Counted from the first letter of the stretch, positions 1,669 through 19,543 are shown. The stretch: 20,000 nucleotides of DNA from an uncultured virus (IMG/VR IMGVR_UViG_3300009168_000043) (IMGVR_UViG_3300009168_000043); one strand, 5' to 3'. The notes: generated from the letters alone by a model not told the origin. Translations and numbers: made by a program.

Positions 1669-1914
1669 ATGAAGTTAGCAGTTGTGGTGATGTTGTTAGG
1701 AGTTTGTAGTAGGAGTGTTGTTATAGTAGATTCCAAGACTGGAGAGTCGTTGGTTGGAGTTGGGGTGGTGTGTGGTAGAGACACTTTGTTCTCTGACATG
1801 GATGGTTGTGTGAGTGTGGGGATTGGAGTAGATAGTGTTTGTGTATCGTATGTAAGTTATGAGGGTGGGATGGTAGAAGTGAGAGACACTGTTAGGATGG
1901 TGGTTGTGAAGTGA
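1669..1914 (+). CDS. Small putatively exported protein with a CarboxypepD_reg-like (SusC/TonB-receptor N-terminal-type) domain
   Basis: Hydrophobic N-terminus, then VIVDSKTGESLVGVGV...SDMDG...VSYVSY, matching the D-x-x-TGE-x-L-x-G-x-x-V / (T/S)D-x-DG / S-x-x-(G/S)Y pattern. ATATATAA at 1644-1651 upstream. Confidence 0.65.
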   Translation: MKLAVVVMLLGVCSRSVVIVDSKTGESLVGVGVVCGRDTLFSDMDGCVSVGIGVDSVCVSYVSYEGGMVEVRDTVRMVVVK

Positions 1915-2380
1915 TGTCATCATCGAGTGCATAGATTGTGAAATCTGATGTGTGTTCGTCGTTTGTGTACTTTGTGTAGATCATTTTCACGGCCTGTCTG
2001 TTTCTGTTGTAGATCATTTTGACGATCGTTTTTTTTGTAGTGTCTTCTTCGTTTTTTGTGTAAGTGTGTTCTTCGGTTATCGTGTCGTTATCTGGAGTAA
2101 AGAGTGAGTTTAGGAATCTTATCTGTGAGACGTTCAGGTGGTTGACTTTTGTTAGGAGTATGTTTTCTGGTTTTGTTTTGAGTAATCGAGTGATGTCTGG
2201 TAGAACGGAAAGGTTTTTTGTTTCGTTTGCGTGTTTGAGGTTTTCGTACTGGTTTTCTTCCATCATTTTTTTCAGAGTGTCTGATGCCAGCTGTACAGCT
2301 TTTCTTCCTATTCCTATACTAGATAGTCCGAATTCTTTGTCCTGTTTTATCTCGTTGATCGATTCCCTTACTAGTTTCAT
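1892..2380 (-). CDS. NEIKQ-leader family protein (member 1)
   Basis: N-terminus MKLVRESINEIKQDKEFGLSSIGIG; ATATATAA motif at 2391-2398 (minus). Confidence 0.9.
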   Translation of the reverse strand: MKLVRESINEIKQDKEFGLSSIGIGRKAVQLASDTLKKMMEENQYENLKHANETKNLSVLPDITRLLKTKPENILLTKVNHLNVSQIRFLNSLFTPDNDTITEEHTYTKNEEDTTKKTIVKMIYNRNRQAVKMIYTKYTNDEHTSDFTIYALDDDITSQPPS

Positions 2381-2537
2381 GGTGTTTGTTTTATATATTT
2401 AAGGGTTCGTACGTCGCCGGGAACCGTTGGACGTCTTTGGTGATAGAGGGGCTCCAGAGGCGAAGAGAAGGGTGAGAGACGCGTTTTGGGAGTCTTAGAG
2501 ACTGAAAGATATATATTTTATATAACGTGATAGTACA

Positions 2538-3623
2538 ATGAAAGCAAGGTTAATCGTAAACGAGATAAAACAGGGGTTGGGTTCTGGAATGGAAGGTATT
2601 GGTGTGGGCAGGTCTGCATTGAGCAAGGGATACAAGAAGATGAAGGAAGTCTTCCCTGGTATAGAAGAGTTCGAGATACCGTTGGTAGAATTCGAGTGGT
2701 TTAAAGCGAGCGGCACTTTCTTTGGTAGTTTCGAGAGTGAAGAAGATGTGACTATAAGTCTTAGTCGTGATGAGATGGAAGACGTATCGTCGATATCTGG
2801 AATACCGTTAAAAGATTTGGTCTACATAGATCCTGCTCACTACAGTCAAAAGTTTGCTGAAGATGCCACCATAGAGGGATTGTTACCGCTTAGTCAGTAT
2901 TTGGATAGGTGTGATCACGTTAAGGTAGAGCTTAACACTAACGATCCACGTAGGATGTTAGAGAATAACAGTGTCGTGAGGTTTACGTTTGTGTGGTGGG
3001 AATCTGCGAGGTTTGGATACCTCGTGATAGAGAACGGCACGTACATTTTCTTGGTGTACGAAAGACAAAACGTATCAGAGAGGAGGGTAAACGAGATAAG
3101 GACTGAAACAGAAGGTTCTGGTCTGGGGGCGATAGGTGCTGGTAGGGTTAAGATGTTATTTTCTGACTTTCTTAAGTCGTACGATCCATCGTTCAAGTTT
3201 AGAACCACGTTAGATAAAGATACGTTTCCAGGATCAACAGAAGATTTTTCTGTAAATTGCGCGAATCTAGCTGCTGAAGAGTTAGGAGTTTCTTTTAACA
3301 GGATTAAAAGAAAGGATTACGATTATATAACAGGACCTGCAAAGGTGGAGCTTAGGAAGATAATAGCTAATCCAGAGACCACCAAGCGTGATGTGATAAT
3401 ACAGCATCAGGACTTTAAAGAAGAAAAAGAGTATTCTGATGATGGAACATCTGTATCTGTTAAAGCAGTTCCAACAGGAAGCTATTCCAACATTAAAGTT
3501 ACGATAGTGAAGAATTTAGATCGTGGAGTAGTGATGTTACAGTATGACCTCAACGAAGAAGACGTTATGGATGACGATTACGATGTAGACCTGTACGATC
3601 ACGATGTTTACATGATAGTGTAA
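2538..3623 (+). CDS. NEIKQ-leader family protein, two-unit fusion (member 2)
   Basis: N-terminus MKARLIVNEIKQGLGSGMEGIGVG; internal second leader RRVNEIRTETEGSGLGAIGAG at about nt 3081-3143. Confidence 0.9.
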   Translation: MKARLIVNEIKQGLGSGMEGIGVGRSALSKGYKKMKEVFPGIEEFEIPLVEFEWFKASGTFFGSFESEEDVTISLSRDEMEDVSSISGIPLKDLVYIDPAHYSQKFAEDATIEGLLPLSQYLDRCDHVKVELNTNDPRRMLENNSVVRFTFVWWESARFGYLVIENGTYIFLVYERQNVSERRVNEIRTETEGSGLGAIGAGRVKMLFSDFLKSYDPSFKFRTTLDKDTFPGSTEDFSVNCANLAAEELGVSFNRIKRKDYDYITGPAKVELRKIIANPETTKRDVIIQHQDFKEEKEYSDDGTSVSVKAVPTGSYSNIKVTIVKNLDRGVVMLQYDLNEEDVMDDDYDVDLYDHDVYMIV

Positions 3624-3624
3624 T

Positions 3625-4092
3625 TCAAGGTCTTCTAAAACATATGTAGCTCATCCACTTTCCGTTCTCATCTGTGTAAGATAGGTAAGATACCCCGTAT
3701 AAGTTGTTAGAAAGCAGTGTGACTGGCAGTTTAACGTTGGGGTAGTTAATGTTGAAAGTTATCTGGTTAAGCTCGTCTTTGTGATTGCCAGAAAGTCCCA
3801 TTAGAACTATCACGTAGTCAAGCACCTTGACTGGTACCTTGTTTGTTTCTATGCAAACGATGTTTTTTGTAGAAGTATCTAAGGCTTTAGCTATCTTGCT
3901 TGGAATCTTCTTCATTTCTTTTTCGTAGGGCCAGTTTGTGCTGTTAAGGGGTTTGAGGTCTCCTATCGTGGAATCTATTTGAACGGCCATCGTGTATGCT
4001 TTATAAAAAGACACTGCACCCACTCCTATAGAAGAAAGTGCCGATTCTCTGTCTTGTCTTATTTCGTTAAGTGATTCTCTTACCAGTTTCAT
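3625..4092 (-). CDS. NEIKQ-leader family protein (member 3); start moved from 4128 to the ATG at 4092
   Basis: MKLVRESLNEIRQDRESALSSIGVG begins at 4092, matching the paralogs and removing the overlap with the upstream gene. Confidence 0.9.
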   Translation of the reverse strand: MKLVRESLNEIRQDRESALSSIGVGAVSFYKAYTMAVQIDSTIGDLKPLNSTNWPYEKEMKKIPSKIAKALDTSTKNIVCIETNKVPVKVLDYVIVLMGLSGNHKDELNQITFNINYPNVKLPVTLLSNNLYGVSYLSYTDENGKWMSYICFRRP

Positions 4093-4106
4093 CTTTTTTA
4101 ATTTTT

Positions 4107-4619
4107 TTATTCGAACGGTATACACCATCCAGATATCTCGTTTTTTTCCTTACGTAGACCTTCTGCTGTGTAGTAGTGTTCTACGTACCACAGGTATGCA
4201 GTCTTTCTTTCTGGATCTGATTTTATCAGTGTGATTGCACCATCGTAATCGTTACCTTTTCCACTGTTGTTCATGTAAATGTAGGTTGGATTATCATCGG
4301 ATGAAGTGTCGTAAGACGGGTATAAACTACGTAGGAAAGCTTTCAAAGCGGGTGGTGCTGTCCATTCGGCTATCCAAATCATTTTATCTGTTGAAGTGCC
4401 AAGCGTTTTCGATATCTTTTCTGTCCATTCTGCTGCCAGTTTTTTGTTCTTAACCACAGAAAAACGTAAATAGACTGTAATGTGATCGGGTTTTATGTTC
4501 CATCTTTTTAGTATGGTTTTATACACGGATAAAGCTGCTTCTTTTCCTATGCCGAGTCCAGCCAGGCCAGATTCTTTATCTTGTCTTATTTCGTTTAGTG
4601 ATTCTCTTACCAGTTTCAT
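4107..4619 (-). CDS. NEIKQ-leader family protein (member 4)
   Basis: MKLVRESLNEIRQDKESGLAGLGIG. Confidence 0.9.
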   Translation of the reverse strand: MKLVRESLNEIRQDKESGLAGLGIGKEAALSVYKTILKRWNIKPDHITVYLRFSVVKNKKLAAEWTEKISKTLGTSTDKMIWIAEWTAPPALKAFLRSLYPSYDTSSDDNPTYIYMNNSGKGNDYDGAITLIKSDPERKTAYLWYVEHYYTAEGLRKEKNEISGWCIPFE

Positions 4620-4625
4620 ATTTAA

Positions 4626-5102
4626 TCAGTATTTTAAAAAGAAGAAAGTACAGTATAGAACTGGTACGTTCATCGTTTTATATATGTTGTAAACCGATGC
4701 AGTTACCAATCCCATGGATTCAGAGTAGCGTATGGTTGCATATTTTGTTTTAGATATCGTTATTCTGTATTCCGTTAAATCAAAAGACTTCATAACGTTT
4801 TTTAGACACCATCTTAACATAACAGGTAGTATCTTGTGCACCCGTACCGCGTACATTATCCTTTCGTGTTCATTAAAAAGTCGTATTGCTTCTTCTGATA
4901 TTGTTGGATACATAAGCATTAAGGATTTGTAATAGTGTTTCGCATTGGATATAAGATCAAAGTAGTCTTCGTACTCATCAGGCCACGTCTTAGTTATGTG
5001 TTTGTATGCTTTGTTGATGGCCGTGCTTCCAACACCTATCGTAGATAGAGCAGATTCTTTATCTTGTTTTATCTCGTTAAGATATTCCTTAACTATTTTC
5101 AT
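4626..5102 (-). CDS. NEIKQ-leader family protein (member 5); start moved from 5126 to the ATG at 5102
   Basis: MKIVKEYLNEIKQDKESALSTIGVG begins at 5102; ATATATAA motif at 5116-5123 (minus) lies just upstream. Confidence 0.9.
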   Translation of the reverse strand: MKIVKEYLNEIKQDKESALSTIGVGSTAINKAYKHITKTWPDEYEDYFDLISNAKHYYKSLMLMYPTISEEAIRLFNEHERIMYAVRVHKILPVMLRWCLKNVMKSFDLTEYRITISKTKYATIRYSESMGLVTASVYNIYKTMNVPVLYCTFFFLKY

Positions 5103-5256
5103 TCGATCGTTTGTTTTATATATCAATGAGAATTTGGGTCACAAACCTTCTTAGGTTTAAACCGAATAATAAACTATAGCAGAACGTGATTCTAGTGTGT
5201 TCTGATGGTGAATCATCAATAGGAATATATAAACTATAAAACTTAATATAGATGTT

Positions 5257-5757: not shown

Positions 5758-5829
5758 AAGTATCACATATTATACTATCAGTAATTTTTAGATGATAGAT
5801 TAAGTTTTTTTTATGAAAAGTATCACATA
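5756..5829. repeat. 14-bp direct repeat AAAAGTATCACATA between convergent genes
   Basis: Exact copies at 5756-5769 and 5816-5829, 60 bp apart, each followed 3 nt later by TACTA. Confidence 0.6.
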
Positions 5830-5834
5830 AGGTA

Positions 5835-6290
5835 CTAATGAGGCACTCTAAGACCATAAAAGCTTTCGGTTTTTTTCCCAAACCCTTCGTATGTTATCCA
5901 AGTCGCACCATACCTTGAGTTAGTCATGTAATCTACATAAGCTGCACCATCAGATGTGCTAAAGTGAGTGGTTTTAAAGTTCTCCCTTACACTAAACACA
6001 ACGTCATCCATGTATTTTATCACATAATCGGGCAAAGTTTTTACATTAACGACAACTATTTTGGACTGAGGATAGTCTAATACTTTTTCTAACTGAGACG
6101 GTAAATCTTTATATATGTCGTTCCAATTCCAGAATTTACTATCTATGGGAAATATCCTGTTTATTTGGTTCCAAAGTTTTTCTACTTCCACGTAAGCTCT
6201 ACACATCACGGTAGATCCAACTCCAATTGCAGATAATCCCGAACCTTTATCTTGCTTTATTTCATATAGGGTTTCCTTTACTATTTTCAT
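5835..6290 (-). CDS. NEIKQ-leader family protein (member 7)
   Basis: MKIVKETLYEIKQDKGSGLSAIGVG. Confidence 0.9.
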   Translation of the reverse strand: MKIVKETLYEIKQDKGSGLSAIGVGSTVMCRAYVEVEKLWNQINRIFPIDSKFWNWNDIYKDLPSQLEKVLDYPQSKIVVVNVKTLPDYVIKYMDDVVFSVRENFKTTHFSTSDGAAYVDYMTNSRYGATWITYEGFGKKTESFYGLRVPH

Positions 6291-6303
6291 TTTTACATTT
6301 ATA

Positions 6304-6768
6304 TTATGGTTTTCTAAATGCGTAATAGTACTGTCTTAAAGATGCATCTTCCACATAATTAAAGTAAACTGCTCCCATTTTTCTGTTGGTGTATACGTTC
6401 ATCATAGTTTTTCTAGAAGATTCCCAATGTAGCTCTACTTGAGACTCTTCCACATCAGGATGATCTCCATTTATAAAAAACACTCTTGAATCTAAATACT
6501 CTTCTATATTGTTAGATATATTGTATAGGTTAACGAGTGCTATATTAGATATAGGCACCTCAAGAAGTTTTACAAGCATCGGTTTGATCACATGCAAAGC
6601 ATCGTTGAATATCCATGCTTTATCATCTAAATTAAGATAGTTTTCGACCTCGTCATTTATGTTAAGAGCTTCTAAATAGGCCCTACACGTGTAAGCTTTT
6701 CCGACTCCGATTGCAGACAATCCTGATTCTTTATCTTGTTTTATTTCGTTTATGTATCTAGCTCGCAT
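6304..6768 (-). CDS. NEIKQ-leader family protein (member 8)
   Basis: MRARYINEIKQDKESGLSAIGVG; ATATATAA at 6782-6789 (minus). Confidence 0.9.
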   Translation of the reverse strand: MRARYINEIKQDKESGLSAIGVGKAYTCRAYLEALNINDEVENYLNLDDKAWIFNDALHVIKPMLVKLLEVPISNIALVNLYNISNNIEEYLDSRVFFINGDHPDVEESQVELHWESSRKTMMNVYTNRKMGAVYFNYVEDASLRQYYYAFRKP

Positions 6769-6781
6769 TGAGATGTTTTAT

Positions 6782-7519
6782 TTATATATCGTTGATTTGT
6801 TTTGCAAACTCGCAGTTTCTACATAAGAGATCACTGTCGTTTTGTACCATAGATAATTCTATTTCTAACCTTTTTTTGTTGAATTCTTCTGAACCGTATT
6901 CGTTTAAAAACACGTTGCCTATCTTGTGTTTAAGAGCCCAATCCATACAACAAAGATAAACATCTCCGTTAGGAAGTATCTGATTACAGTCCCACACGTT
7001 GTTGTTAGTGTAGAAATCACACCGAATCCTACCGAGTTTTCTTTCTACGTAAGTATCTTTTAGATTGCTTGCTCTTGTAAACACTTTGCTTTGTACGCTC
7101 TGCACATCATATCGGTTTATGTTTATTAACCTAACGAATTTTTCTACACTGTTGTAAAAAGATGAATCTCTGTAGTACTTACCGTTAAACTTGTGAAAGT
7201 TAACGTAATTGAAAGTAACGGTATCTTTTAGTCTGTTTATCTTTTCATCTGTTAATCCTATCAACGTCGTAAAGAGATTTATTCTGAACTTTTGTTCGTA
7301 TGCGTGCACCATCATTTCTGCTATTTCTCTATTAAACATGTTCTCGGAGTATCCTGCAAAGTTTATTATAACGTGTTTGCTTATGTTGTCAAGCATGGTT
7401 TTAAACTTATCTATAGAGAGAAGTTTTTCTCCGTAGTAGTTGCTCAGTAATTTATCCTGTGGACAGTACGTACACGAGTTTGGACATCCAACTATCGTAG
7501 TTATATCTACACTCTTCAT
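6782..7519 (-). CDS. Radical SAM protein with a C-terminal SPASM/twitch-like domain
   Basis: CxxxCxxC motif (CPNSCTYC) near the N-terminus; AGYSE(N) corresponds to the GGEP motif; C-terminal C...ILPNGDVYLCCMD...IGNV...CRNC is SPASM-like. Confidence 0.88.
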   Translation of the reverse strand: MKSVDITTIVGCPNSCTYCPQDKLLSNYYGEKLLSIDKFKTMLDNISKHVIINFAGYSENMFNREIAEMMVHAYEQKFRINLFTTLIGLTDEKINRLKDTVTFNYVNFHKFNGKYYRDSSFYNSVEKFVRLININRYDVQSVQSKVFTRASNLKDTYVERKLGRIRCDFYTNNNVWDCNQILPNGDVYLCCMDWALKHKIGNVFLNEYGSEEFNKKRLEIELSMVQNDSDLLCRNCEFAKQINDI

Positions 7520-8445
7520 GATATAAATTTAGAAGTTTCTTTTTTTGTTGTATCGTTAAAGACCAACACGTTTTTATCTGATATGGTTTTTTCGTACTCT
7601 ATAATGAGATCATTGCTTTCAGGAAACGTATCTTTCAGAACGTTTTTTATCTTATCAATGTTAGATTGAGTAAACTTTCTTCTCCACCACATGTGAGTGT
7701 AATCAAAAACATCTCTTTTTTCTATATCACCTATGATATCAAAAAACTTGGAGTGTATAGATTTTTTTACAGGTGCAAACAGAGAGTGCCACTTATAATC
7801 TTCTCTGGTAGATGTTAGATAGAGAGTAAGTTCTTCCAGTATCATTCCAATCTTGAGTTTGTTTCCTCTTATTTTTTCTTCTTTTATGATTTCATACATC
7901 CTTTTAACGTCTTGAATGTATTTTTGCGTTACGTATGATCTCATTCCTACTACTCCACAGCTGAAGTTGTTTCCAACAACACCTTCTGATGAAAATGTTG
8001 GTTTGTATTTTTTTATGTCATACATTCCTCTTAGTGATGTGAATTCATCCAATGCAAGAACTGTGTTGTCTAAATCTACGTACTGTACTGTTATATCAAA
8101 ATCACCGTTAAAGGGTAATAGATGATCTCTAAACATAAACACGTCTGAATCTATGTGTACAAAATCTTCTTTTATTTCTTCTATTACAGATAGTTTGTAT
8201 GCACTCCAGAAATTCTGATCATAATGGTTTTCCTTTATGATAATTTCATCATAAGGTATGTATCTTACTACGGTATCATAAGCCTTTTTATTACAGTACA
8301 TGGTGACACGACCATAATGTTTTTTCAAAAGCAAGTAGCTAAGAAGAAAAGTGTAAAAATTAAGGTACACTTCAGTACCATTAAGAATACCACCTGCATA
8401 TTGACAGCCATCATCAAACTGAGAGTAAGACTGTATTATCTTCAT
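7516..8445 (-). CDS. DUF6734-like / GT-A glycosyltransferase-like protein
   Basis: LSYLLLKKHYGRVTMYCN...FWSAYKL...FVHIDSDVF (DxD)...SCGVVG...ILEE...YTH pattern. The family was recalled from motifs, not searched. Confidence 0.6.
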   Translation of the reverse strand: MKIIQSYSQFDDGCQYAGGILNGTEVYLNFYTFLLSYLLLKKHYGRVTMYCNKKAYDTVVRYIPYDEIIIKENHYDQNFWSAYKLSVIEEIKEDFVHIDSDVFMFRDHLLPFNGDFDITVQYVDLDNTVLALDEFTSLRGMYDIKKYKPTFSSEGVVGNNFSCGVVGMRSYVTQKYIQDVKRMYEIIKEEKIRGNKLKIGMILEELTLYLTSTREDYKWHSLFAPVKKSIHSKFFDIIGDIEKRDVFDYTHMWWRRKFTQSNIDKIKNVLKDTFPESNDLIIEYEKTISDKNVLVFNDTTKKETSKFIS

Positions 8446-8446
8446 A

Positions 8447-9403: not shown

Positions 9404-9404
9404 T

Positions 9405-9884: not shown

Positions 9885-9887
9885 TGT

Positions 9888-11314: not shown

Positions 11315-11318
11315 TTCT

Positions 11319-11831: not shown

Positions 11832-11832
11832 A

Positions 11833-12351
11833 CTATTTATATCTTATAAGAAAATAAGTTGACCCAGTCATCTCGTATGTAGTTGAAAAATCTCGAAAGA
11901 ATACTATCATTGATATGCCCCAGTATGCAGAAGTAAAACATTCTACTCTCATGGTATGTTCTGTTTTCTTACCTTTGTTGAATACGTCATCTGGCTCATA
12001 CGTTAATGGATCGTAGTTTTCATCATTAATACGCCATCCCTCAAAAACTGTTTCATCCAAAAATTTCCACCTTATTAAATTTTCGAAGATGCTTACTTTA
12101 CAAAACAGCAGATCACTTTCGTTACAGTTTAATGATTTTAAAATGTGAGGCATCACATAACTTATCTGATCACGACGTTCTTTAATGTTGACAATATCTG
12201 TTAATTCGTCTAATTCGTGTGCAGAATCACCCATCAATCGTTTGATTTCATTATATCCACGAGTCATAGCAGTTTGGCCAATTCCAATAGTTCTTAAACT
12301 AGACCCTTCTATGTTCTGTTTTATTTCGTTAAGTATTATCTTTGCTCTCAT
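11833..12351 (-). CDS. NEIKQ-leader family protein (member 14)
   Basis: MRAKIILNEIKQNIEGSSLRTIGIG. Confidence 0.9.
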   Translation of the reverse strand: MRAKIILNEIKQNIEGSSLRTIGIGQTAMTRGYNEIKRLMGDSAHELDELTDIVNIKERRDQISYVMPHILKSLNCNESDLLFCKVSIFENLIRWKFLDETVFEGWRINDENYDPLTYEPDDVFNKGKKTEHTMRVECFTSAYWGISMIVFFRDFSTTYEMTGSTYFLIRYK

Positions 12352-12357
12352 TCGTTT

Positions 12358-12819
12358 TTATTTTGTTCTAAAGAAAAAGTACACAACATCTTTTCCTTCT
12401 GGTGTTGTGTATTCTACTATAGTAGCTCCCTTTGAATAGTTGGTGTAAATAGCAGCTTTCACATTTTCATCAGTGGATTTCCATACTAGATTAATCGTTT
12501 TTTTTGATAGTTGTGAACCATCATTAAAAATCTTAGAATGTAAATAGTTTTTTGCTTCATCTGATATAGATCTACTGCTTACTCGTATTATATTTGCTGG
12601 ATTAGATCCTAAAATATCTGGTATTAATTCTCTTATTGATAATAAAGATGCCCAGATAATATCAGGATCTGTTAATCCTAATTCAGTTTTGGATTTTATA
12701 TTAGGACTCAATAAAGATACATTCTTATAAGCTTCATTCATTTGTGTTTTTCCTACACCTATTGCTGATAATCCAGTATCTTTATCTTGTTTTATTTCGT
12801 TAACTGATTTAGCTCTCAT
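12358..12819 (-). CDS. NEIKQ-leader family protein (member 15), first gene of the long leftward operon
   Basis: MRAKSVNEIKQDKDTGLSAIGVG; ATATATAA(ATA) at 12838-12845 (minus). Confidence 0.9.
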   Translation of the reverse strand: MRAKSVNEIKQDKDTGLSAIGVGKTQMNEAYKNVSLLSPNIKSKTELGLTDPDIIWASLLSIRELIPDILGSNPANIIRVSSRSISDEAKNYLHSKIFNDGSQLSKKTINLVWKSTDENVKAAIYTNYSKGATIVEYTTPEGKDVVYFFFRTK

Positions 12820-12834
12820 TTTAATCGTTTACTT

Positions 12835-12845
12835 TATTTATATAT
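12835..12845 (-). promoter_or_regulatory. Putative phage late-type promoter ATATATAAATA
   Basis: Contains the T4 late consensus TATAAATA. The same ATATATAA core recurs shortly upstream of other operon-leading family genes. Confidence 0.55.
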
Positions 12846-12898
12846 GGCCAAAAAAGTTTTGTAACTTTATAAATTTAATGATATTTTTTACATATTAT

Positions 12899-12909
12899 TA
12901 TTATATTTG
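12899..12909 (+). promoter_or_regulatory. Bacteroidota sigma70-type -7 element (TATTATATTTG)
   Basis: Matches TAnnTTTG, 22 nt upstream of the 12932 ATG; identical 11-mer at 14261-14271 and 19651-19661. Confidence 0.65.
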
Positions 12910-12931
12910 CATAATAATTAAATGATATATC

Positions 12932-13978
12932 ATGGATAAAGAATTACAAAAACTTGTTGATCAGTTTAAAGTTTGCTTTTCAGTTGAAGGAATTCCTGCG
13001 ATAAAAAGCGATAGGTTTTCGCAAGAAGAATATGATAGGTTCTGTGTAGAAAATAACGTGTATAAGGGATATGCAGCCAGGTTGGTTAAAAATCATAAGA
13101 CGTATACTGATGAAGAAATAGGTGAACAAATATACACTGTGTTAAACACATTTATTGACCCTATTCTTCTTAAGAAAAAGATATCAAAAATGATGGATAT
13201 GTTATCGTATGAAGATGAATCAAAAGATAAGAAATACGTAGTTAATGAGGTTTACAAAATGTTAGGCTGGAAAACCGAAGATAACAAAGATGGTCTAACA
13301 CCTATAAATGAAGAGTTTTGGGTTGGAAGTGGATCCATACCATTCGTAATAAGCGAATCTGATTACAACAAAAAAATGTTTAATTTGAAGACTTTGTATG
13401 GAGCGATGGGGTTACACGAAATATTTGGAAAAAACATCGAAGTTTTTTTTGACATTAAATCTATACTGTTTGGTACAATAAATAGTTTTCCAGTAGAATG
13501 GAATAAACGTTATGATCTAAAAATAGAAAAAAATAAAAAATACTCATCTAATTTCGATTCGTTGGATGATTTGGAAGATAATGTCGTGGTTAAAAATATA
13601 AAATCTGAAGCTATTAAGTTCTATAGAGATAAGTCTAAAAACTATAAAGAACGGCGCAAGGTTTTTGAAAAACATGGAAATAAAGAATGCTACATATTTC
13701 ATCCTAAAGATAAAAATTTAAATGAAATATTTGAAAAATATTGTGATGATGATCAAGATAGACATTCTATGATTCATGTTTCAGAAGTGATAGAATGGTG
13801 GATAGATATCATGTCAGAGTTTAGAACTAAAATAGTAAGTTCAGGTAAGTTTAATAAAAAAATAGAGAAAACAACAAGGAACTATATACCTTCTAAAACT
13901 GCTATCAAAAGATTAGAAAGATATTACATGGAAAAACTGTTTTTAGAAGGAATTTGCAAATTTGAATTTGATTGGTAA
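12932..13978 (+). CDS. Hypothetical protein, 348 aa
   Basis: Long ORF with a promoter-like element upstream; no recognisable motif. Confidence 0.85.
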   Translation: MDKELQKLVDQFKVCFSVEGIPAIKSDRFSQEEYDRFCVENNVYKGYAARLVKNHKTYTDEEIGEQIYTVLNTFIDPILLKKKISKMMDMLSYEDESKDKKYVVNEVYKMLGWKTEDNKDGLTPINEEFWVGSGSIPFVISESDYNKKMFNLKTLYGAMGLHEIFGKNIEVFFDIKSILFGTINSFPVEWNKRYDLKIEKNKKYSSNFDSLDDLEDNVVVKNIKSEAIKFYRDKSKNYKERRKVFEKHGNKECYIFHPKDKNLNEIFEKYCDDDQDRHSMIHVSEVIEWWIDIMSEFRTKIVSSGKFNKKIEKTTRNYIPSKTAIKRLERYYMEKLFLEGICKFEFDW

Positions 13979-13982
13979 TGAT

Positions 13983-14210
13983 ATGGAAAAATATGTAACT
14001 TATTCACGGGAACCATACGAAGGTTATGTCAGCGTAGAAATCAAAGCTGCTGATGAAAAAATTCACGAAATGAAAAAAGAGATTAAACGTTTAGAAGAAT
14101 CTGTGTATAACCTACGTTCTAGATGTATACATGAGTATATGTTTAGCAGTATGGGAATGTATGAAGATAACTATCGTTGCAGAATTTGCGGTGAAGAATC
14201 AGAAAGATAA
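13983..14210 (+). CDS. Small coiled-coil plus putative Zn-ribbon protein; start probably 13983
   Basis: The ATG at 13983 follows the upstream stop; heptad-like helix, then C-x-H...CxxC (RCIHEY...YRCRICGE). Confidence 0.7.
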   Translation: MEKYVTYSREPYEGYVSVEIKAADEKIHEMKKEIKRLEESVYNLRSRCIHEYMFSSMGMYEDNYRCRICGEESER

Positions 14211-14260
14211 AAATATGTTTTTAACTTTATTGAATAAGATTTTTAAATTTGAATCTTTTT

Positions 14261-14271
14261 TATTATATTTG
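14261..14271 (+). promoter_or_regulatory. Bacteroidota sigma70-type -7 element (TATTATATTTG)
   Basis: TAnnTTTG match 23 nt upstream of the 14295 ATG. Confidence 0.65.
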
Positions 14272-14294
14272 CATTTCATAAAGCGAAATAAAAT

Positions 14295-14738
14295 ATGGTA
14301 AATAAAAGAGAGTGGGTAATTAGTGAAGAGAGAGATAAGTGTGATGAAGATAAACTAACTTACCACCTTTTTGAGGGTGGTAAGGAGCTTGGATGTATAG
14401 AGATAGAAGTTCTCTATGAATCATACGAGTATGAGTTTATGGAAATATTATCAGAGTTAGAATTCGCAAACCAGTTTCGACCGGAACCTATTGTAAAGTT
14501 TCTTTTAGTAGAAGTGCATCCAAACAATAGAAGTATTGGAGTAGCCACATTCATGTTAACAGAGGTTTTTAAACGGTTACGATTAGCAGGATTCACTCAG
14601 TGGTTTCTGAATGCCAGTCCATTAGATACTAATGGATTAACATTGCATCAATTAGAGGGATTCTATTCTAAGTTTGGGTTCAAAAGAGAACAGATGAGAG
14701 AAGAAAGCACTCTGATGTGGTTTACTGATGGTATTTAG
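14295..14738 (+). CDS. GNAT-family N-acetyltransferase
   Basis: Motif A-like VEVHPNNRSIGVATFML and C-terminal LxxFYSKFGF. Confidence 0.8.
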   Translation: MVNKREWVISEERDKCDEDKLTYHLFEGGKELGCIEIEVLYESYEYEFMEILSELEFANQFRPEPIVKFLLVEVHPNNRSIGVATFMLTEVFKRLRLAGFTQWFLNASPLDTNGLTLHQLEGFYSKFGFKREQMREESTLMWFTDGI

Positions 14739-14786
14739 ATGAAACTTTCGGTTCAGTGTGATATATAATAGTATATATAAATTGTT

Positions 14787-14978
14787 ATGAACATACTGAA
14801 CCGAATAATATCATCTATAATAAGAAAAAGAAAACAGCGAATATTCAAGAAGCACGAGAATGAGCTTAGAATAAAACTTCAACATAAGAATATAATGGAT
14901 TGTGTGTTTTTTAAATCGTGTGAAGATGCAAGTTGTCCATTCATCGTTATAAGAAAAGAATATGAAAAAAACCTTTAA
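14787..14978 (+). CDS. Small basic hypothetical protein
   Basis: ATG ORF preceded by two ATATATAA copies (14761, 14773) and overlapping the next gene. Confidence 0.55.
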   Translation: MNILNRIISSIIRKRKQRIFKKHENELRIKLQHKNIMDCVFFKSCEDASCPFIVIRKEYEKNL

Positions 14979-15375
14979 GAACAAAATAGTATTTTTATTT
15001 ATGATGCTATTTATGTTATTGTTTTCCATTGATTTATACAACGGAGGGAGGACAGTAATGCCTCCAGATATCATAGATATGTCAAAAAAGGAAATTAACG
15101 TTTTTGTAACAACTTATAAATATAGCAAAGAACGATGTACTACTGCTGATGGCAGTATTATACGGCCGGGTGTTTTTTGGTGTGCTGTAAGTCCAGATTT
15201 ATTAAGAGATAATGACTTAAATTTTGGAGATACCATCATATATAAAGACATCGGCTATGCTATTCATGATTTGACACACGAACGATTGAGGGGTACAGTA
15301 GATATTCTCATTCATGATAACAACGTTTTTTCTGAATCTAATAAGATTTACATAAATAATTCACCTCATGATTAA
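14962..15375 (+). CDS. 3D (Asp-Asp-Asp)-domain-like protein with an N-terminal membrane anchor; possible peptidoglycan-active enzyme
   Basis: Hydrophobic N-terminal helix; VTTY...TTADG...CAVSPDL...FGDTI...IHD...VDIL pattern typical of 3D/MltA-like domains. Confidence 0.7.
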   Translation: MKKTFKNKIVFLFMMLFMLLFSIDLYNGGRTVMPPDIIDMSKKEINVFVTTYKYSKERCTTADGSIIRPGVFWCAVSPDLLRDNDLNFGDTIIYKDIGYAIHDLTHERLRGTVDILIHDNNVFSESNKIYINNSPHD

Positions 15376-15856
15376 AAAAGTTAAGCACTATGTGTGTCCA
15401 GTGTGCAGTGGAAAAACCACAAAGGCTCAAGAAATTCAGTTGAACGATCCTGAAAATACGTTACTGATAGAAGTATTAGATTCTACGGATATAGAACGTA
15501 TATATGAAAAACACATAAAAGGTTGTAGGTTTAAAACCATAGTAATAGACAACTTTTTAAAACTTTATAATAAGAAAAGAGGCGACGTGAACAAAATCAT
15601 GCAAAAAATGAAAGCTCACTCAGAAGAGATAATACTCTTTTCCACACCAGATAAACTGTATGATAAAAAAACCGATAAAGAAGAACTGAAATCTAAATTT
15701 TTAGATGGTAAAAGCGCGCAGGTTATATACGAGAAGTTTTATCCTGGAATGTCTAAGAATGACAGGGCAATTCTTACTTCATCACTGCCTGCATCTGATT
15801 TTGAATCAAAGGTGCTGGGTGTAATTTTTAGTTCACAAAAGATGTTAACTAGATAG
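15368..15856 (+). CDS. Hypothetical protein with a degenerate P-loop-like motif
   Basis: CPVCSGKTT near the N-terminus (Walker A-like) and IVIDNF (Walker B-like). Confidence 0.55.
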   Translation: MIKKVKHYVCPVCSGKTTKAQEIQLNDPENTLLIEVLDSTDIERIYEKHIKGCRFKTIVIDNFLKLYNKKRGDVNKIMQKMKAHSEEIILFSTPDKLYDKKTDKEELKSKFLDGKSAQVIYEKFYPGMSKNDRAILTSSLPASDFESKVLGVIFSSQKMLTR

Positions 15857-16319
15857 CAAAGAATGTGTATGATTGCTCAAATTTGTATCCAGTAGAAGAA
15901 TCGGTGATATCATATGTTCTTAATCTTGTAAGGTGAATTTTATTATAATAGTTTTGTATCCTGTAAAGTTTTTGCTCTATGATAACATTTTCTTCTTTTA
16001 TAGGGTAATTCGTTATCTTTATTATCCAATTAACAAAATCAGATACGGTATCTTGATCATTCATACTTAATAATTTACTGTCAGATATTCCCATCACATC
16101 TTCTTCGTTATCAACGTTAACCATGGTGATTATCTTTTCTTTTACCTTTTGTGGAATATTGTCCATATAATACAGTTCATCTGATTCGACAATTATAGAA
16201 TTGAAATTATCTTTAATGTAATAGTAAGTTTTGGTCATTTCAATTTTTCCTATTCCTACCGCAGATAATCCACTTTCTTTATCCTGTTTTATTTCGTTTA
16301 TTATAAGTTTTGCTTTCAT
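15849..16319 (-). CDS. NEIKQ-leader family protein (member 16)
   Basis: MKAKLIINEIKQDKESGLSAVGIG. Confidence 0.9.
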   Translation of the reverse strand: MKAKLIINEIKQDKESGLSAVGIGKIEMTKTYYYIKDNFNSIIVESDELYYMDNIPQKVKEKIITMVNVDNEEDVMGISDSKLLSMNDQDTVSDFVNWIIKITNYPIKEENVIIEQKLYRIQNYYNKIHLTRLRTYDITDSSTGYKFEQSYTFFAI

Positions 16320-16813
16320 ACTCTTACAAAAATATCTCTAAATTCTTTTCTTGAAATGGATACAAGATCAGCAAATCCTACATACCCTATGCCATCTTCT
16401 ACATTTACATAAGATAAAAAAGAAGCTTCCCATTTTTTTCCGCTGTATATATCTCTTTTAATTATCTCATCATAATTGTTTTTTTCGTGGCTTAAGAATT
16501 TTTCGTGAATATCAAATAAGAATTCGCGTTTATTATCTTCTGATATGTGTAGTAACATGTAACTATCGATGTCGTAACTTAGAAAATCTATTAGCTTCTT
16601 AGCTTCTTTTAAAAACTCTCTTGAGTTGTTTCTAACCGTGTGAACGAATTCAATCAGTGAATTCTTTAGTCTTATATTGGATATGGTGTTTGGATATGTT
16701 TCATTAATGTATTTAGATGCAACGTTATATCTATCTTTTCCTACCCTTATTCGCGAGAGGCCAGAACCCAACACGTTTTGTTTTATTTCATTGACAACAT
16801 ATTTAGCATTCAT
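16316..16813 (-). CDS. NEIKQ-leader family protein (member 17)
   Basis: MNAKYVVNEIKQNVLGSGLSRIRVG. Confidence 0.9.
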   Translation of the reverse strand: MNAKYVVNEIKQNVLGSGLSRIRVGKDRYNVASKYINETYPNTISNIRLKNSLIEFVHTVRNNSREFLKEAKKLIDFLSYDIDSYMLLHISEDNKREFLFDIHEKFLSHEKNNYDEIIKRDIYSGKKWEASFLSYVNVEDGIGYVGFADLVSISRKEFRDIFVRV

Positions 16814-16935
16814 ATTTATTTCTTTTATTGTATTTTTAATTCTGACACTATTTAGACACTTTCAGATGGTGTTTTATTGTAAATTCAATAGGTAATACAG
16901 CTTTAAAAAATAATTCGTCTGACACTTACAGAACA

Positions 16936-17451
16936 CTATTTGTATTTAACGAAAACACAGTGAATTATTCTATCATATGGTTTTTCTGAATTGTTTAAAT
17001 ATATTATTCCAATTCCCACTCTTCGTAAATACTCTAACTTAGAAGAAAACGTCACTTTGTGCCCGTTATCCATCTCTTCATCGAACATCGCATAAGCATC
17101 ATCAAAATCGAAGCCCATATCAAACAACAGTTCATCTGTTTCGGTGAATGTTGTTTCGGATGCTGAATAAATGTTGACACATATAAAATCTGATAAAGAA
17201 GAATCGCTGTACTCTTCAAAGACTTCTTTGTAATAATTCATCCTGTTTTTAATTTTATCGGATGAAGAGCTTTCGGAAAATCTTTCGAATATACTATCTA
17301 ATTTTTCAGCCTGCTCGTTAAACCTGTGCGGCCATCTTTTGTTAAGTTTGTGATACAATTTTAAGACGTTTGCCTCACCTATACCAATAGTGCCTAACGA
17401 CGAACCTTCTATATTCTGTTTTATCTCATTTATTATCAGTTTAGCTATCAT
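16936..17451 (-). CDS. NEIKQ-leader family protein (member 18)
   Basis: MIAKLIINEIKQNIEGSSLGTIGIG. Confidence 0.9.
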   Translation of the reverse strand: MIAKLIINEIKQNIEGSSLGTIGIGEANVLKLYHKLNKRWPHRFNEQAEKLDSIFERFSESSSSDKIKNRMNYYKEVFEEYSDSSLSDFICVNIYSASETTFTETDELLFDMGFDFDDAYAMFDEEMDNGHKVTFSSKLEYLRRVGIGIIYLNNSEKPYDRIIHCVFVKYK

Positions 17452-17455
17452 GTGA

Positions 17456-17965
17456 TTACTTATATTTTATAAAATAATTAAACAGCGTTGGAAGTTTTTC
17501 TCTAGTGTACGTAGGGTTAGGATACATCTCTAAATAGCCAATTCCAAAATAGCTGTTGTAGATTATCTGATAACTCCATTCATCTCCAAACATTCGTTCT
17601 GAATCACTAGAAAAAACCGATTTAACATCAGAATTATCAGATCCAAACATGTTAGCAAAAACACCATTCCTGTAATTTCCCATTTCAGTTAATGATATGA
17701 GCGAAAAATTTTCTATACTGCTATCTGTGATTGATTCTAACACAGATATATAAGAATTTAAAAAACCAGTATCTTTATTAGTATCAACAAGCTTTTGTCT
17801 GTATTTTACTAATAGATCCTCTAGAGTGTGCTTCGTACTGAAATCTTTATTAATCTTTTTTATAAGATCATATCCACGTAATATTGATGATTTTCCTATT
17901 CCGATTGCGCCCAACCCTGATGTTTCTATGTTCTGCTTTATTTCGTTTACAAATTTCGCTCTCAT
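17456..17965 (-). CDS. NEIKQ-leader family protein (member 19)
   Basis: MRAKFVNEIKQNIETSGLGAIGIG. Confidence 0.9.
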   Translation of the reverse strand: MRAKFVNEIKQNIETSGLGAIGIGKSSILRGYDLIKKINKDFSTKHTLEDLLVKYRQKLVDTNKDTGFLNSYISVLESITDSSIENFSLISLTEMGNYRNGVFANMFGSDNSDVKSVFSSDSERMFGDEWSYQIIYNSYFGIGYLEMYPNPTYTREKLPTLFNYFIKYK

Positions 17966-17978
17966 ATATTATATTTAT

Positions 17979-18503
17979 TTATATTCTAACGAAATAGTAA
18001 CTACACATTTTTTTATTTCCAGGAGTCATATCGGTCAAGATGATGTATCCGATCCCATCATTTATGTTTACGTAACACAAGAAACCTGCTGTCCATATTC
18101 TTTTTTCGTTGTAATACTCTCCATTAACTATCTTCTTAATTTCGTTTCTGTCCGGATTAAGAAAATGTTCACGAATGTAATCATTTATTTTTTTCGCTGT
18201 CGGATTGTTAATGTTTCCTACATCTTCTGGTAAGTTTAATACCACGTATTCATTCAAGTTTTCAAGGCCTTCGCTTATAACACGTATATGTTCACTCATT
18301 ACATCTTTAGTGGTTTTCACTGTTATAGATGATAAAAAGTTGTTCAGTATATCGTGCAGTACATCGTCTGAAACTATTCCAGGAAATAATTCATTCAACT
18401 TAACAGAAGCTTTCGTTAGATGACGTACACCTATGTCTAATCTTCCAAGAGATGAACCATCTACATCTTGTTTTATTTCGTTTATTATAAGTTTTGCTAT
18501 CAT
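17979..18503 (-). CDS. NEIKQ-leader family protein (member 20)
   Basis: MIAKLIINEIKQDVDGSSLGRLDIG; body resembles 16316..16813. Confidence 0.9.
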   Translation of the reverse strand: MIAKLIINEIKQDVDGSSLGRLDIGVRHLTKASVKLNELFPGIVSDDVLHDILNNFLSSITVKTTKDVMSEHIRVISEGLENLNEYVVLNLPEDVGNINNPTAKKINDYIREHFLNPDRNEIKKIVNGEYYNEKRIWTAGFLCYVNINDGIGYIILTDMTPGNKKMCSYYFVRI

Positions 18504-18505
18504 GT

Positions 18506-18985
18506 TTATTTTGTTTTTATGAAGTAAAAAGTATACTCTGCGAATTTTTTCTTTAATTCATCAATATAATATCCATGAACTTCTATGGCATTATATTTTA
18601 TGTTTAAATGAACGTTCCATTTTTCTGTTAACAAACCCAGTTTGTTATACCATTCACCACTTAACACCATCTCTGTATTATCAAAAAGAGAACTTATCCA
18701 TTGACTACACGTTGCACTTATATCATCATCATTTACATAGATTACTTCATCTTCAGCCCATCCTAATTTTTTCGTTATGTAATCATATACTTGCTGGTTG
18801 CTTGAGTTTTTATCATCCTCACTAATGTTATAGTTATAAAGAGTGTCAAACCCACTCAACTGATTCGGAAATTTTTTCTTTAAGATTTTATACACAAGAA
18901 TCATAGATTCTTTTCCTACACCAATTGCACCCAAACCCGAATTTTGAAGGTTAGTTTTAATCTCATTTACAAATTTTGCTCTCAT
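18506..18985 (-). CDS. NEIKQ-leader family protein (member 21)
   Basis: MRAKFVNEIKTNLQNSGLGAIGVG. Confidence 0.9.
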   Translation of the reverse strand: MRAKFVNEIKTNLQNSGLGAIGVGKESMILVYKILKKKFPNQLSGFDTLYNYNISEDDKNSSNQQVYDYITKKLGWAEDEVIYVNDDDISATCSQWISSLFDNTEMVLSGEWYNKLGLLTEKWNVHLNIKYNAIEVHGYYIDELKKKFAEYTFYFIKTK

Positions 18986-19432: not shown

Positions 19433-19444
19433 GACGTATTTATT

Positions 19445-19453
19445 TTATATATC
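19445..19453 (-). promoter_or_regulatory. Putative late-type promoter GATATATAA
   Basis: About 13 nt upstream of the 19432 ATG, at the head of the rightmost leftward operon; same motif as at 2391, 5116, 6782 and 12838. Confidence 0.5.
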
Positions 19454-19481
19454 GGTAATTTTGATACAAGAGAATTCCATC

Positions 19482-19543
19482 AGAAAAAGGTTTTACAGAG
19501 AGCTTATTTTCTTATATTATAATACTAAAGTATTTTTATATGC
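19482..19543. repeat. 62-bp perfect direct repeat, copy 1
   Basis: AGAAAAAGGTTTTACAGAGAGCTTATTTTCTTATATTATAATACTAAAGTATTTTTATATGC is identical to 19939-20000. Confidence 0.95.

Follow-up and report, generated by a model that had tools for sequence, protein, structure and literature searches.

The window analysed here, a stretch of 20,000 nucleotides from an uncultured phage, contains 24 paralogous units in 21 intact open reading frames (ORFs), all of which carry a common N-terminal leader on strongly diverged bodies. The data support the view that the leader is a separable module, distinct from the bodies. Sequence patterns and the analogy with phage T4 make it somewhat probable that this module is a capsid-targeting, protease-cut signal on diversified head cargo, and thus a variant of the T4 scheme of capsid-targeting sequence (CTS) and internal proteins.

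Genetic organization of the array

A six-frame scan with the pattern [NY]E[IV][KR][QT] detected exactly 24 sites in the window, all of them in frame and close to the unit starts, whereas shuffled versions of the window (n = 200) contained 0.17 matches on average and 2 at most. The array of 21 genes and 24 units that had been described in an earlier note on this DNA was thereby confirmed. The units are 151 to 182 aa in length, and their ORFs span 11,820 of the 20,000 bases (59%), in accordance with the earlier estimate of well over half of the window. The tight packing was likewise evident, as the gaps between units on the same strand range from -4 to 14 nt, with a sole exception of 122 nt. Three ORFs comprise two units each. 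The features of the window are as follows:

1892-2380, minus strand: unit 1, 162 aa, MKLVRESINEIKQ-type leader
2538-3623, plus strand: fused ORF, units 2 (2538-3074) and 3 (3075-3623); internal leader begins ...RRVNEIRT
3625-4092, minus strand: unit 4, 155 aa from the MKLVRES start; ORF open to 4128; basis including P0011
4107-4619, minus strand: unit 5, 170 aa
4626-5102, minus strand: unit 6, 158 aa from the MKIVKEY start; ORF open to 5126; basis including P0016
5257-5757, plus strand: unit 7, 166 aa
5835-6290, minus strand: unit 8, 151 aa, motif variant YEIKQ
6304-6768, minus strand: unit 9, 154 aa
6782-7519, minus strand: radical SAM/SPASM protein, 245 aa, inside the unit operon; Pfam matches above cut-off to Radical_SAM (6.2e-8) and SPASM (5.9e-6)
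7516-8445, minus strand: DUF6734 protein, 309 aa; Pfam PF20508, 3.6e-15; 4-nt overlap with the radical SAM gene
8447-9403, minus strand: fused ORF, N-terminal unit 8936-9403 and C-terminal unit 8447-8935 (units 10 and 11)
9405-9884, minus strand: unit 12, 159 aa
9888-10382, minus strand: unit 13, 164 aa, modelled with AlphaFold
10379-11314, minus strand: fused ORF, N-terminal unit 10856-11314 and C-terminal unit 10379-10855 (units 14 and 15)
11319-11831, minus strand: unit 16, 170 aa
11833-12351, minus strand: unit 17, 172 aa
12358-12819, minus strand: unit 18, 153 aa
12932-15856, plus strand: opposite-strand island breaking the array, with 348-aa, 82-aa, weak GNAT, 137-aa (hydrophobic N-terminus) and 162-aa proteins
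15849-16319, minus strand: unit 19, 156 aa; orthologue L123:369-848, 39% identity
16316-16813, minus strand: unit 20, 165 aa
16936-17451, minus strand: unit 21, 171 aa; orthologue L124:3134-3658, 50% identity
17456-17965, minus strand: unit 22, 169 aa; orthologue L124:2620-3129, 37% identity
17979-18503, minus strand: unit 23, 174 aa
18506-18985, minus strand: unit 24, 159 aa, motif variant NEIKT
18986-19432, minus strand: lysozyme/transglycosylase-like protein, 148 aa; phrog_3108 4.4e-37, Pfam Phage_lysozyme2 only 0.0085
19444-19452, minus strand: promoter-like motif ATATATAAA, 12-20 nt 5' of the start codon of the lysozyme-like gene
2390-2398 (minus), 5115-5123 (minus), 5225-5233 (plus), 6781-6789 (minus) and 12837-12845 (minus): further ATATATAAA sites

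For the ORFs at 3625-4128 and 4626-5126, the most likely starts are internal Met codons, at 4092 (MKLVRES...) and 5102 (MKIVKEY...), respectively. The 348-aa, GNAT and 137-aa genes of the island are syntenic in contig L123, and the lysozyme-like gene is the first of the right-hand unit operon, 0 nt from the adjoining unit gene, an order that is also present in contig L124. The motif ATATATAAA, which is common to the unit operons and the lysozyme-like gene, matches 11 times in the window versus 1.11 expected, and none of 200 shuffles reached 11.

Sequence and modularity of the leader

All 24 units share the start pattern M[KR]A[KR]..[ILV]NEI[KR]Q-x4-5-SGL..IG[VI]G. In the alignment of the units the positions A1, E9 and G24 are invariant, N8, I10, Q12 and L18 are conserved in at least 90%, and [ILV]-[NY]-E occurs in 24 of 24 units. 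The previously proposed motif NEIKQ...GLxxIGxG has variants: N is replaced by Y once, K by R three times and Q by T twice, and IG gives way to IR, IK, LD or LG. The Tyr reported to follow the motif corresponds to an aromatic residue eight positions past the last Gly (Y in 77, F in 16 and W in 13 of 148 sequences). Identity between paralogues averages 52% in the leader versus 14% in the body (276 pairs). The codon use of the leader agrees with the bias of the genome (AAC 161 versus AAT 106; ATA for 257 of 380 Ile codons) and therefore provides no pointer to a role at the DNA or RNA level.

Several lines of evidence support the earlier proposal of a constant, separable tag on diversified bodies. 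When the 132 homologues from outside the window were searched with separate leader and body profiles, 54 matched the leader profile only and 60 matched both. The leader is also found on three proteins of the leucine-rich-repeat (LRR) type (P0110, P0145 and P0147; four to six repeats with a spacing of about 21 residues), of which P0110 is similar at 4e-7 to the LRR portions of NCBIfam models, and in P0089 and P0094 it borders an inserted, unrelated domain. Its first half alone is present on proteins adjoining units, for instance L124:1603-1917, which starts with MRAKMLNE, and L123:5229-7157. Natural fusion proteins hold two to five units. In 13 multi-unit proteins, 19 internal leaders were identified, and the core motif is preserved in each of them ([ILVT]-[ND]-E in 18 cases, I-L-E in the remaining one); an M[RK]A[KR] start is confined to true N-termini and absent from internal leaders. 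In both AlphaFold models the leader appears unstructured: pLDDT is about 45-54 both at the N-terminus and, in a natural fusion, at residues 160-179, which connect two confidently folded bodies. As the underlying alignments were shallow (24 and 28 rows), such low values carry little weight by themselves.

Bodies and distribution of the family

The bodies are predicted to be alpha/beta domains of about 130 aa with one shared topology, consisting of helices, one strand, a helix and a four-strand meander, which was obtained in all three modelled bodies. The faint pattern previously seen in the bodies thus reflects a real common topology, and their description as hypervariable turned out to be misleading: because one fold is common to the bodies and individual paralogues retain orthologues at 33-50% identity in related contigs, their variation is old divergence rather than ongoing hypervariation.

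In agreement with the earlier failure to recognise a named family, none of the 21 unit ORFs matched Pfam or PHROG. Moreover, none of 127 homologues reached the Pfam cut-off (two fell just under it), neither of two units was matched by NCBIfam, and no clear known fold was found for the family. It comprises 154 representatives among 1.84 billion proteins, and the ten family clusters that were looked up are all metagenomic. A tblastn search of one unit against 50,697 phage records returned nothing at 1e-3. To our knowledge, the family has no cultured member.

Linkage of the units to head genes in a related phage

The window contains no capsid, protease, portal or scaffold gene, and the link to the phage head accordingly rests on a different phage, G002, an 85-kb IMG/VR fragment of a very large phage with a CheckV completeness of 21%. 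In a blastp comparison at 1e-5 every match between G002 and the window was unit-to-unit, so that the unit family is all they share. The G002 units at 12283-12714 and 18082-19476 flank a capsid gene of the Gp23 family (PF07068, 3.4e-35) and a gene for a 782-aa protease-scaffold protein, a Peptidase_S77 of the T4 gp21 type that extends into a long tail (PF03420 above cut-off; phrog_207, 1.6e-39). The latter protein contains ten [ILV]-N-E motifs, all of them C-terminal to the protease domain, whereas shuffled sequences contained 1.44 and none of 20,000 reached ten. N occupies the middle of 10 of its 26 [ILV]xE sites at an N frequency of 0.10 (binomial P 1e-4). The general excess of [ILV]xE in the scaffold tail (33 versus 15.8) may derive in part from helical periodicity, which is not preserved by shuffling. 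The G002 capsid protein begins with MAQ-LNE and thus carries [ILV]-N-E at residues 4-6. Additionally, a motif nearly identical to ATATATAAA is located upstream of one G002 unit and of the protease-scaffold gene; no such motif lies upstream of the G002 capsid gene, which counts against the head-addressing reading.

A proposed model for capsid targeting and cleavage

According to the proposed mechanism, the first part of the leader, M[KR]A[KR]..[ILV]-N-E, would act like the T4 capsid-targeting sequence of about 10 residues and bring each protein into the core of the assembling prohead. A prohead protease of the T4 gp21 type (Peptidase_S77) would then cut C-terminal to the invariant Glu, and an identical cut would free the units of the natural fusions. 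The bodies, alpha/beta domains or LRR in some relatives, would be cargo retained in the head and, by analogy with T4, delivered together with the DNA. Targeting, cleavage, packaging and ejection, as well as any function of the cargo, are what we infer from these comparisons.

In the literature consulted, Glu is the residue after which the S77-type proteases of T4, phiKZ, 201phi2-1 and SPN3US all cleave (PMC5694885), and T4 gp21 reduces the scaffold to small peptides and trims short N-terminal peptides off IPI-III and Alt (PMC9958956). The literature consulted does not describe S77 proteases as favouring N ahead of the Glu. Within the unit bodies [ILV]NE is not depleted (5 observed versus 3.8 expected). 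The leader remains conserved for about 15 residues beyond the proposed cut (SGL..IG.G), and a simple cut-off tag fails to explain this conservation. Twenty-four units would also be a large cargo, a point against the head-cargo reading.

Alternative roles of the leader

Conservation past the Glu suggests a retained tag, and the leader might serve to dock each protein to an outer part of the virion, for example the baseplate, the fibres or appendages of the head. Since such a tag would stay attached, the array would represent interchangeable surface binders, not internal cargo. LRR bodies are typical binders, and in both G001 and G002 a leader-LRR gene is located two genes 3' of a Phage_base_V baseplate-hub gene and not beside head genes. 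We nevertheless regard docking as unlikely. The genes flanked by the alpha/beta units of G002 encode capsid and protease rather than tail proteins, the abundance of [ILV]-N-E in the scaffold is suggestive of proteolysis, and the motif is kept at every fusion junction, which fits release by cleavage.

Small, fast-diverged, tandem phage proteins without known family are typical of accessory and anti-defence loci, and the units fit this description. They might be non-virion host-takeover or anti-defence proteins with a common leader for regulation, turnover, localisation or mixed oligomerisation. This explanation appears quite improbable, because it would make a coincidence of both the adjacency of units to the capsid and protease genes and the abundance of the motif in the scaffold; the leader codons, moreover, give nothing in favour of a DNA- or RNA-level role.

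RiPP precursors combine a shared leader with varied cores, and the array resembles them in its conserved leader, its varied C-terminal parts and a radical SAM/SPASM gene within it. The leader could be a recognition handle through which the radical SAM/SPASM enzyme and the DUF6734 protein, both encoded inside the array, would carry out a RiPP-like modification. Both enzyme genes lie within the unit operon, overlapping by 4 nt and separated from units by 1-13 nt, and the SPASM domain scored above the Pfam cut-off; for the radical SAM protein NCBIfam yielded only weak subfamily matches. Modification is nonetheless very unlikely. The supposed cores are predicted folded domains of 130 aa rather than peptides, and the closest phage homologue of the radical SAM protein (38% identity) is encoded in a 735-kb phage record with no match to the family profile and no adjoining DUF6734 gene. 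A consistent co-occurrence of the maturase with leader-bearing proteins was not found across genomes: G002, L123 and L124 carry units and no homologue of either enzyme in the sequence examined, and since all three are fragments, this absence is the weak half of the comparison.

Finally, it is extremely improbable that the leader is no more than a conserved core segment at the N-terminus of a single globular domain, in an ordinary expanded family, a possibility raised in the earlier note: most members do pair it with the same alpha/beta body, and many homologues match both profiles, but it is unstructured in both models, also present on LRR bodies, kept as an inter-domain linker in fusions and persistent where the body is undetectable.

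Comparison with known phage systems

The head-cargo reading draws mainly on T4, in which the internal proteins IPI, IPII, IPIII and Alt likewise carry a short N-terminal tag common to otherwise unrelated proteins. As far as described in the available text, T-even internal proteins form a diverse set whose common element is the CTS alone (PMC3012670), and the T4 CTS is about 10 aa long (PMC9958956). The T4 combination of a Gp23-type capsid and a Peptidase_S77 protease recurs in the family-bearing relative G002, and the unit tag has a putative T4-like hydrophobic-x-Glu site at about residue 9, a site type also present in the G002 scaffold and capsid. In contrast to the handful of internal proteins in T4, 24 units are encoded in 17 kb; the tag is bipartite with 25 residues, the second half of which (SGL..IG.G) would outlast the cut; most bodies share one fold; and there are natural polyproteins with as many as five units. 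No homology to the internal proteins of T4 was detected, either by the tblastn search of one unit or by the comparison of the 21 unit ORFs with PHROG.

A further comparison is with SPN3US, a very large phage in which head proteins form large tandem families and protease sites end in Glu (PMC5694885): its paralog family B has 20 members, and proteins of phiKZ and SPN3US are cut at A/S-x-E in the account consulted (PMC5694885). The 11 SPN3US proteins gp144-154 showed no sequence relation to the leader or body profiles (best E-values 0.3 and 0.51, respectively), and with 275-498 aa they lack a shared short N-terminal tag like that of the units.

The second half of the leader, [DE]-S-G-L-[GS]-[SA]-I-G-[VI]-G-K, resembles the encapsulin targeting peptide, for which the consulted part of PMC7925596 gives the consensus DGSLGIGSLKG, in its small residues, Leu/Ile near Gly and closing Lys, a resemblance of short motifs only. 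The encapsulin peptide, of the GSL-x-IGSL-[KR] type, is C-terminal and binds an HK97-fold shell on its inner face, whereas the unit motif is N-terminal or internal, and the spacing differs (L-G-I versus L-x-x-I). Encapsulin shells and phage capsids have the HK97 fold in common, as stated in the section of PMC8229669 used here. By this analogy the leader could be a two-part "cut and anchor" signal, in which an S77 protease would remove the first 8-9 residues and the retained SGL..IG.G-K would tether the cargo to the inner face of the Gp23 (HK97-fold) shell; we consider this quite unlikely.

If the capsid-targeting reading holds, the family would represent a novel form of the T4 scheme of CTS and internal proteins. 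If the cut-and-anchor version were true, very large phages would load dozens of proteins by the encapsulin principle, which would establish a functional link between encapsulins and phage capsids.

Composition of the unit array

A six-frame scan of the window for the pattern [NY]E[IV][KR][QT] yielded 24 sites; 200 shuffled sequences averaged 0.17 sites and never contained more than 2. Each site marks the start of a unit of 151-182 aa. Together the units occupy 21 ORFs, all of them intact, and three of these ORFs comprise two units in one frame. These ORFs take up 11,820 of the 20,000 bases, and the gaps between units on the same strand mostly range from -4 to 14 nt, so that the tightly packed array of 24 leader-bearing units described in the earlier note was recovered in full. 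The window is AT-rich and densely coding, with a GC content of 0.50 at the left end (1-1000) and of approximately 0.29-0.34 over most of its length. The array is broken twice, namely by genes for a radical SAM/SPASM protein and a DUF6734 protein on the same strand and by an island of five genes on the opposite strand, and a lysozyme/transglycosylase-like gene (phrog_3108) forms the head of the right-hand operon. Neither tRNAs, Rfam families nor head genes were found in the window. Assignment of the ORF at 1669-1914 to a CarboxypepD_reg-like domain was rejected, as it is not supported by Pfam. Individual features located beside or between the units are:

295-930, minus strand: ORF of 211 aa with A/P/E/K-rich repeats and no family match
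2381-2537: GC-rich divergent intergenic region of 157 nt separating two units
6782-8445: gene for a 245-aa radical SAM/SPASM protein, translationally coupled to that of the DUF6734 protein, which contains an H-I-D-S-D motif

Conservation of leader and body

The alignment of the 24 units shows no variation at residues E9 and G24 and very little at N8, I10, Q12 and L18. The identity over 276 paralogue pairs is 52% in the leader and 14% in the body, and the bodies can still be aligned end to end. The three bodies modelled with AlphaFold all display the same succession of secondary structures (helices first, then one strand, another helix and a four-strand meander), and the faint pattern formerly noted in the bodies thereby took shape as one common structural arrangement. 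Single paralogues have retained orthologues with 33-50% identity in L123 and L124, two metagenome contigs syntenic with the window. At this degree of identity synonymous sites are saturated, and the retention of orthologues argues from sequence comparison for an old array without active hypervariation. The designation of the bodies as hypervariable consequently holds for their strong divergence, but not for an ongoing hypervariation.

A leader consensus was deduced from the 127 of 130 non-window sequences that allowed anchoring of the motif and reads M-[RK]-A-[KR]-[FIL]-[IVL]-N-E-I-[KR]-[QRK]-x4-5-S-G-L-[GS]-[SA]-I-G-[VI]-G-[KSR]-x5-[KR]-[AG]-[YFW]. A DNA- or RNA-level role of the uniform leader codons AAC, ATA and AAA was rejected, since the same codons are preferred throughout the unit genes and the GAR and CAR codons vary freely. 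The constraint therefore acts on the peptide, as is also indicated by GC-rich homologues that retain VNEIKR. The codon preference of the unit genes is itself unusual, with ATA accounting for 257 of 380 Ile codons and AAC outnumbering AAT (161 vs 106) despite a GC content of about 30%.

Separability of the leader

Structure models, other bodies, split profiles and fusion junctions all speak for a separable leader and bear out the earlier description of a constant leader on divergent bodies. Residues 1-20 of a single modelled unit have a pLDDT of about 52, compared with up to about 90 in the body, and in the natural fusion encoded at 8447-9403 residues 1-16 and 160-179 remain below 50, the latter between two well-folded bodies; such disorder is weak evidence on its own because the underlying alignments are shallow. 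The leader is also present on three proteins of 240-248 aa that carry N-x-L-x-S-L-x-G-x-P-type repeats, each approximately 21 residues long and present in four to six copies; one of the three proteins is matched by the LRR parts of NCBIfam models (4e-7). In two further homologues, P0089 and P0094, an unrelated inserted domain precedes a unit. A ParB-like nature of this insert, considered because of a DGHHR motif, found no confirmation in Pfam or in a sequence search of the PDB.

When separate profiles of leader and body were applied to 132 non-window homologues, 60 matched both, 54 only the leader, nine only the body and nine neither. Moreover, all 19 internal junctions in 13 multi-unit proteins retain the core motif and the Gly-rich part, the core appearing 18 times as [ILVT]-[ND]-E and once as I-L-E, and the start M[RK]A[KR] is confined to the true N-termini of these proteins. 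Additional proteins of 104-642 aa start with MRAKF or MRAKM, followed by [ILV]-x-E or [ILV]-N-E (for example MRAKMLNE and MRAKFIKE), and are devoid of the Gly-rich leader half. They adjoin units in L123, L124, the family-bearing contig G001 and G002, an 85-kb IMG/VR fragment of a related phage, and in their sequences the tag may be reduced to its first half. The candidates are encoded at:

L121 (family-bearing locus), 9204-9713, and G002, 53710-54228
L123, 5229-7157
L124, 1603-1917

Distribution and novelty of the family

None of the 21 unit ORFs of the window matches Pfam at its cut-offs or a PHROG family, and NCBIfam contained no family for the two units searched, in agreement with the earlier view that the motif lies outside named families. 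Searched by profile, a collection of 1.84 billion representatives contained 154 proteins at E <= 1e-3 and 82 at E <= 1e-10; among 150 matches listed of these 154, 19 were the window's own and two were spurious. The ten clusters looked up comprise metagenome sources only and bear no meaningful name, and none of 127 homologues reached a Pfam cut-off. Comparison of window positions 6000-14000 with phage records at the DNA level gave no match, a tblastn search of these records with a unit revealed nothing similar, and word-based protein searches added almost no further members. By pattern searches, the leader was found on only two IMG/VR contigs: its DNA pattern hit 119 loci, of which L117 alone encodes it, and none of 209 stretches with the peptide pattern LIINEIK was confirmed. 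Close relatives of the DUF6734 protein and of the 348-aa protein were likewise not detected in IMG/VR, and the lysozyme-like gene has one distant locus there.

Structural searches with a modelled unit resulted in a best E of 0.04 against the PDB (Foldseek), a best value of 4e-3 with a TM of 0.30 against BFVD, a best Z of 4.6 among 48,161 chains (VIA-align; no chain at Z >= 5) and a best ESM Atlas feature score of 0.84, under the lead level of 0.9. The predicted fold thus has no clear match to a known one. A predicted homotrimer of one unit scored 0.02 against a mark of 0.42, which is not evidence either way.

Units next to head genes in a related phage

One of the leader-LRR proteins is encoded on G002 (GC content 0.265), which must derive from a very large phage, as its 85 kb are rated only 21% complete by CheckV. 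It contains five family matches, and the unit family is the only thing that it has in common with the window. G002 also encodes a protease of the T4 gp21 type, which passes the curated cut-off of Peptidase_S77 and is missing from 14 control genomes. The genes around it are arranged as follows:

unit
homing-endonuclease-like gene
Gp23-family capsid gene (PF07068, 3.4e-35)
gene for a 782-aa protease (phrog_207, 1.6e-39)
three units on the opposite strand

The T4 protease recognizes the motif (L/I)-x-E. The 782-aa protein possesses a long scaffold-like tail and contains ten copies of [ILV]-N-E, all located beyond the protease domain; 1.44 are expected from shuffles, and none of 20,000 shuffles reached ten. 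The motif [ILV]-x-E occurs 33 times in the protein (15.8 expected), a count that helical periodicity may inflate in a scaffold. The middle residue is N at ten of 26 such sites in the tail, with an N frequency of 0.10, and the capsid protein begins with MAQ-LNE.

Seven minus-strand genes directly follow the three units (13480-18812 of locus L134, which spans G002 6000-25000), one of them with a weak match to the glycosyltransferase family Glyco_tranf_2_2 (1.7e-5, below the cut-off). The first unit is preceded, at a distance of about 4 kb, by a radical SAM gene that lacks SPASM.

Expression signals and repeats

The sequence ATATATAAA occurs 11 times in the window, compared with 1.11 expected occurrences, and six of the 11 sites are located 10-32 nt upstream of the start codons of unit operons and of the lysozyme-like gene. 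In G002, ATATATAAA lies ahead of the first unit in the group of three, and ATATATAAT ahead of the protease-scaffold gene; no motif of the ATATATAAA type was found upstream of the capsid gene. Two plus-strand genes of the window have a TATATTTGCAT box upstream instead of ATATATAAA. The box is not enriched above chance (3 vs 1.03 expected; 17 of 200 shuffles reach 3) and gives only a hint of host-type promoters. We infer that the motif classes ATATATAAA and TATATTTGCAT mark late and early genes. A scan for sigma-70-type promoters returned fewer sites than shuffled sequences (65 vs 85). The following repeats were observed:

944-1216: three tandem copies of an element of about 71 nt, 101-nt spacing, 70-100% identical, each with TCTCCGGGATAAAAAAA, located within 738 nt (between 930 and 1669) that are free of long ORFs; could be regulatory or origin-like
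5758-5834: 77-nt gap between convergent units, with two copies of AAGTATCACATA flanking an A/T-rich palindromic stretch; probably a two-way terminator
19482-19543 and 19939-20000: perfect 62-nt direct repeat upstream of the lysozyme-like gene, its copies spaced by 457 nt and the second of them truncated by the window edge

Proposed function of the leader

In the literature, proteases of this type are described as cutting after Glu in T4, phiKZ, 201phi2-1 and SPN3US (PMC5694885), and T4 gp21 as degrading the scaffold to small peptides and clipping short N-terminal peptides off the internal proteins and Alt (PMC9958956). The capsid-targeting sequence (CTS) is the short N-terminal peptide by which these proteins are taken into the prohead core (PMC7411985, PMC9958956), and it is the one element common to the otherwise diverse T-even internal proteins (PMC3012670). 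Together with the motif counts in the scaffold and the capsid protein of G002, these reports make the leader [ILV]-N-E resemble a protease cut site. With a confidence slightly above even, we regard the leader as a head-targeting and cleavage signal. The invariant [ILV]-N-E, situated near residue 9, would be the cut site for the protease of this lineage, and the 8-9 residues ahead of it would be the analogue of a CTS. Cutting at every unit-unit junction would then account for the tolerance of fusions of two to five units.

The T4 scheme is the closest known system, from which the array differs by its larger scale, the bipartite tag of 25 residues, the largely common body fold and the natural polyproteins, and there is no sequence homology between the unit family and the T4 internal proteins. 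Head paralog family B of SPN3US, with 20 members (PMC5694885), is another analogue without sequence similarity. The consensus of encapsulin targeting peptides, DGSLGIGSLKG (PMC7925596), is similar to the second half of the leader, a likeness that serves as a lead only because position and spacing of the motif differ.

Several observations count against head targeting and cleavage. The window contains no head genes and has nothing but the unit family in common with G002, the conservation of the leader runs about 15 residues beyond the proposed cut, the leader-LRR genes adjoin baseplate genes, and [ILV]NE is not depleted from the unit bodies (five observed, 3.8 expected). The baseplate neighbours and the conservation past the cut favour a leader that is retained as a docking tag for outer virion parts, which we consider unlikely. 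A non-virion role of the units fits the data more poorly and seems slightly less likely again. Furthermore, the leader might be a modification handle for the radical SAM/SPASM and DUF6734 enzymes, both encoded inside the unit operon. This improbable explanation is weakened by the closest phage homologue of the radical SAM protein (38% identity), which stands in a 735-kb phage without a family member or a DUF6734 neighbour. In the record of this uncultured phage, the homologue adjoins a leucyl-tRNA-synthetase-like ORF. That the leader is the plain core of a domain fits the data poorly as well and is scarcely tenable. The earlier interpretation, a constant addressing tag on a diversified cargo, is borne out in part, namely in the separable tag on divergent bodies.

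If the units are indeed targeted to the head and cleaved there, an unnamed family so far met only in metagenomes, with 154 cluster representatives in a set of 1.84 billion proteins, would be the cargo of a head-loading system that greatly exceeds the one in T4, and for a group of very large uncultured phages the protease cut site could be predicted as [ILV]-N-E. The family would then supply more than 100 candidate proteins that may enter the host along with the DNA, and its short tag could be tested for the loading of foreign proteins into capsids.
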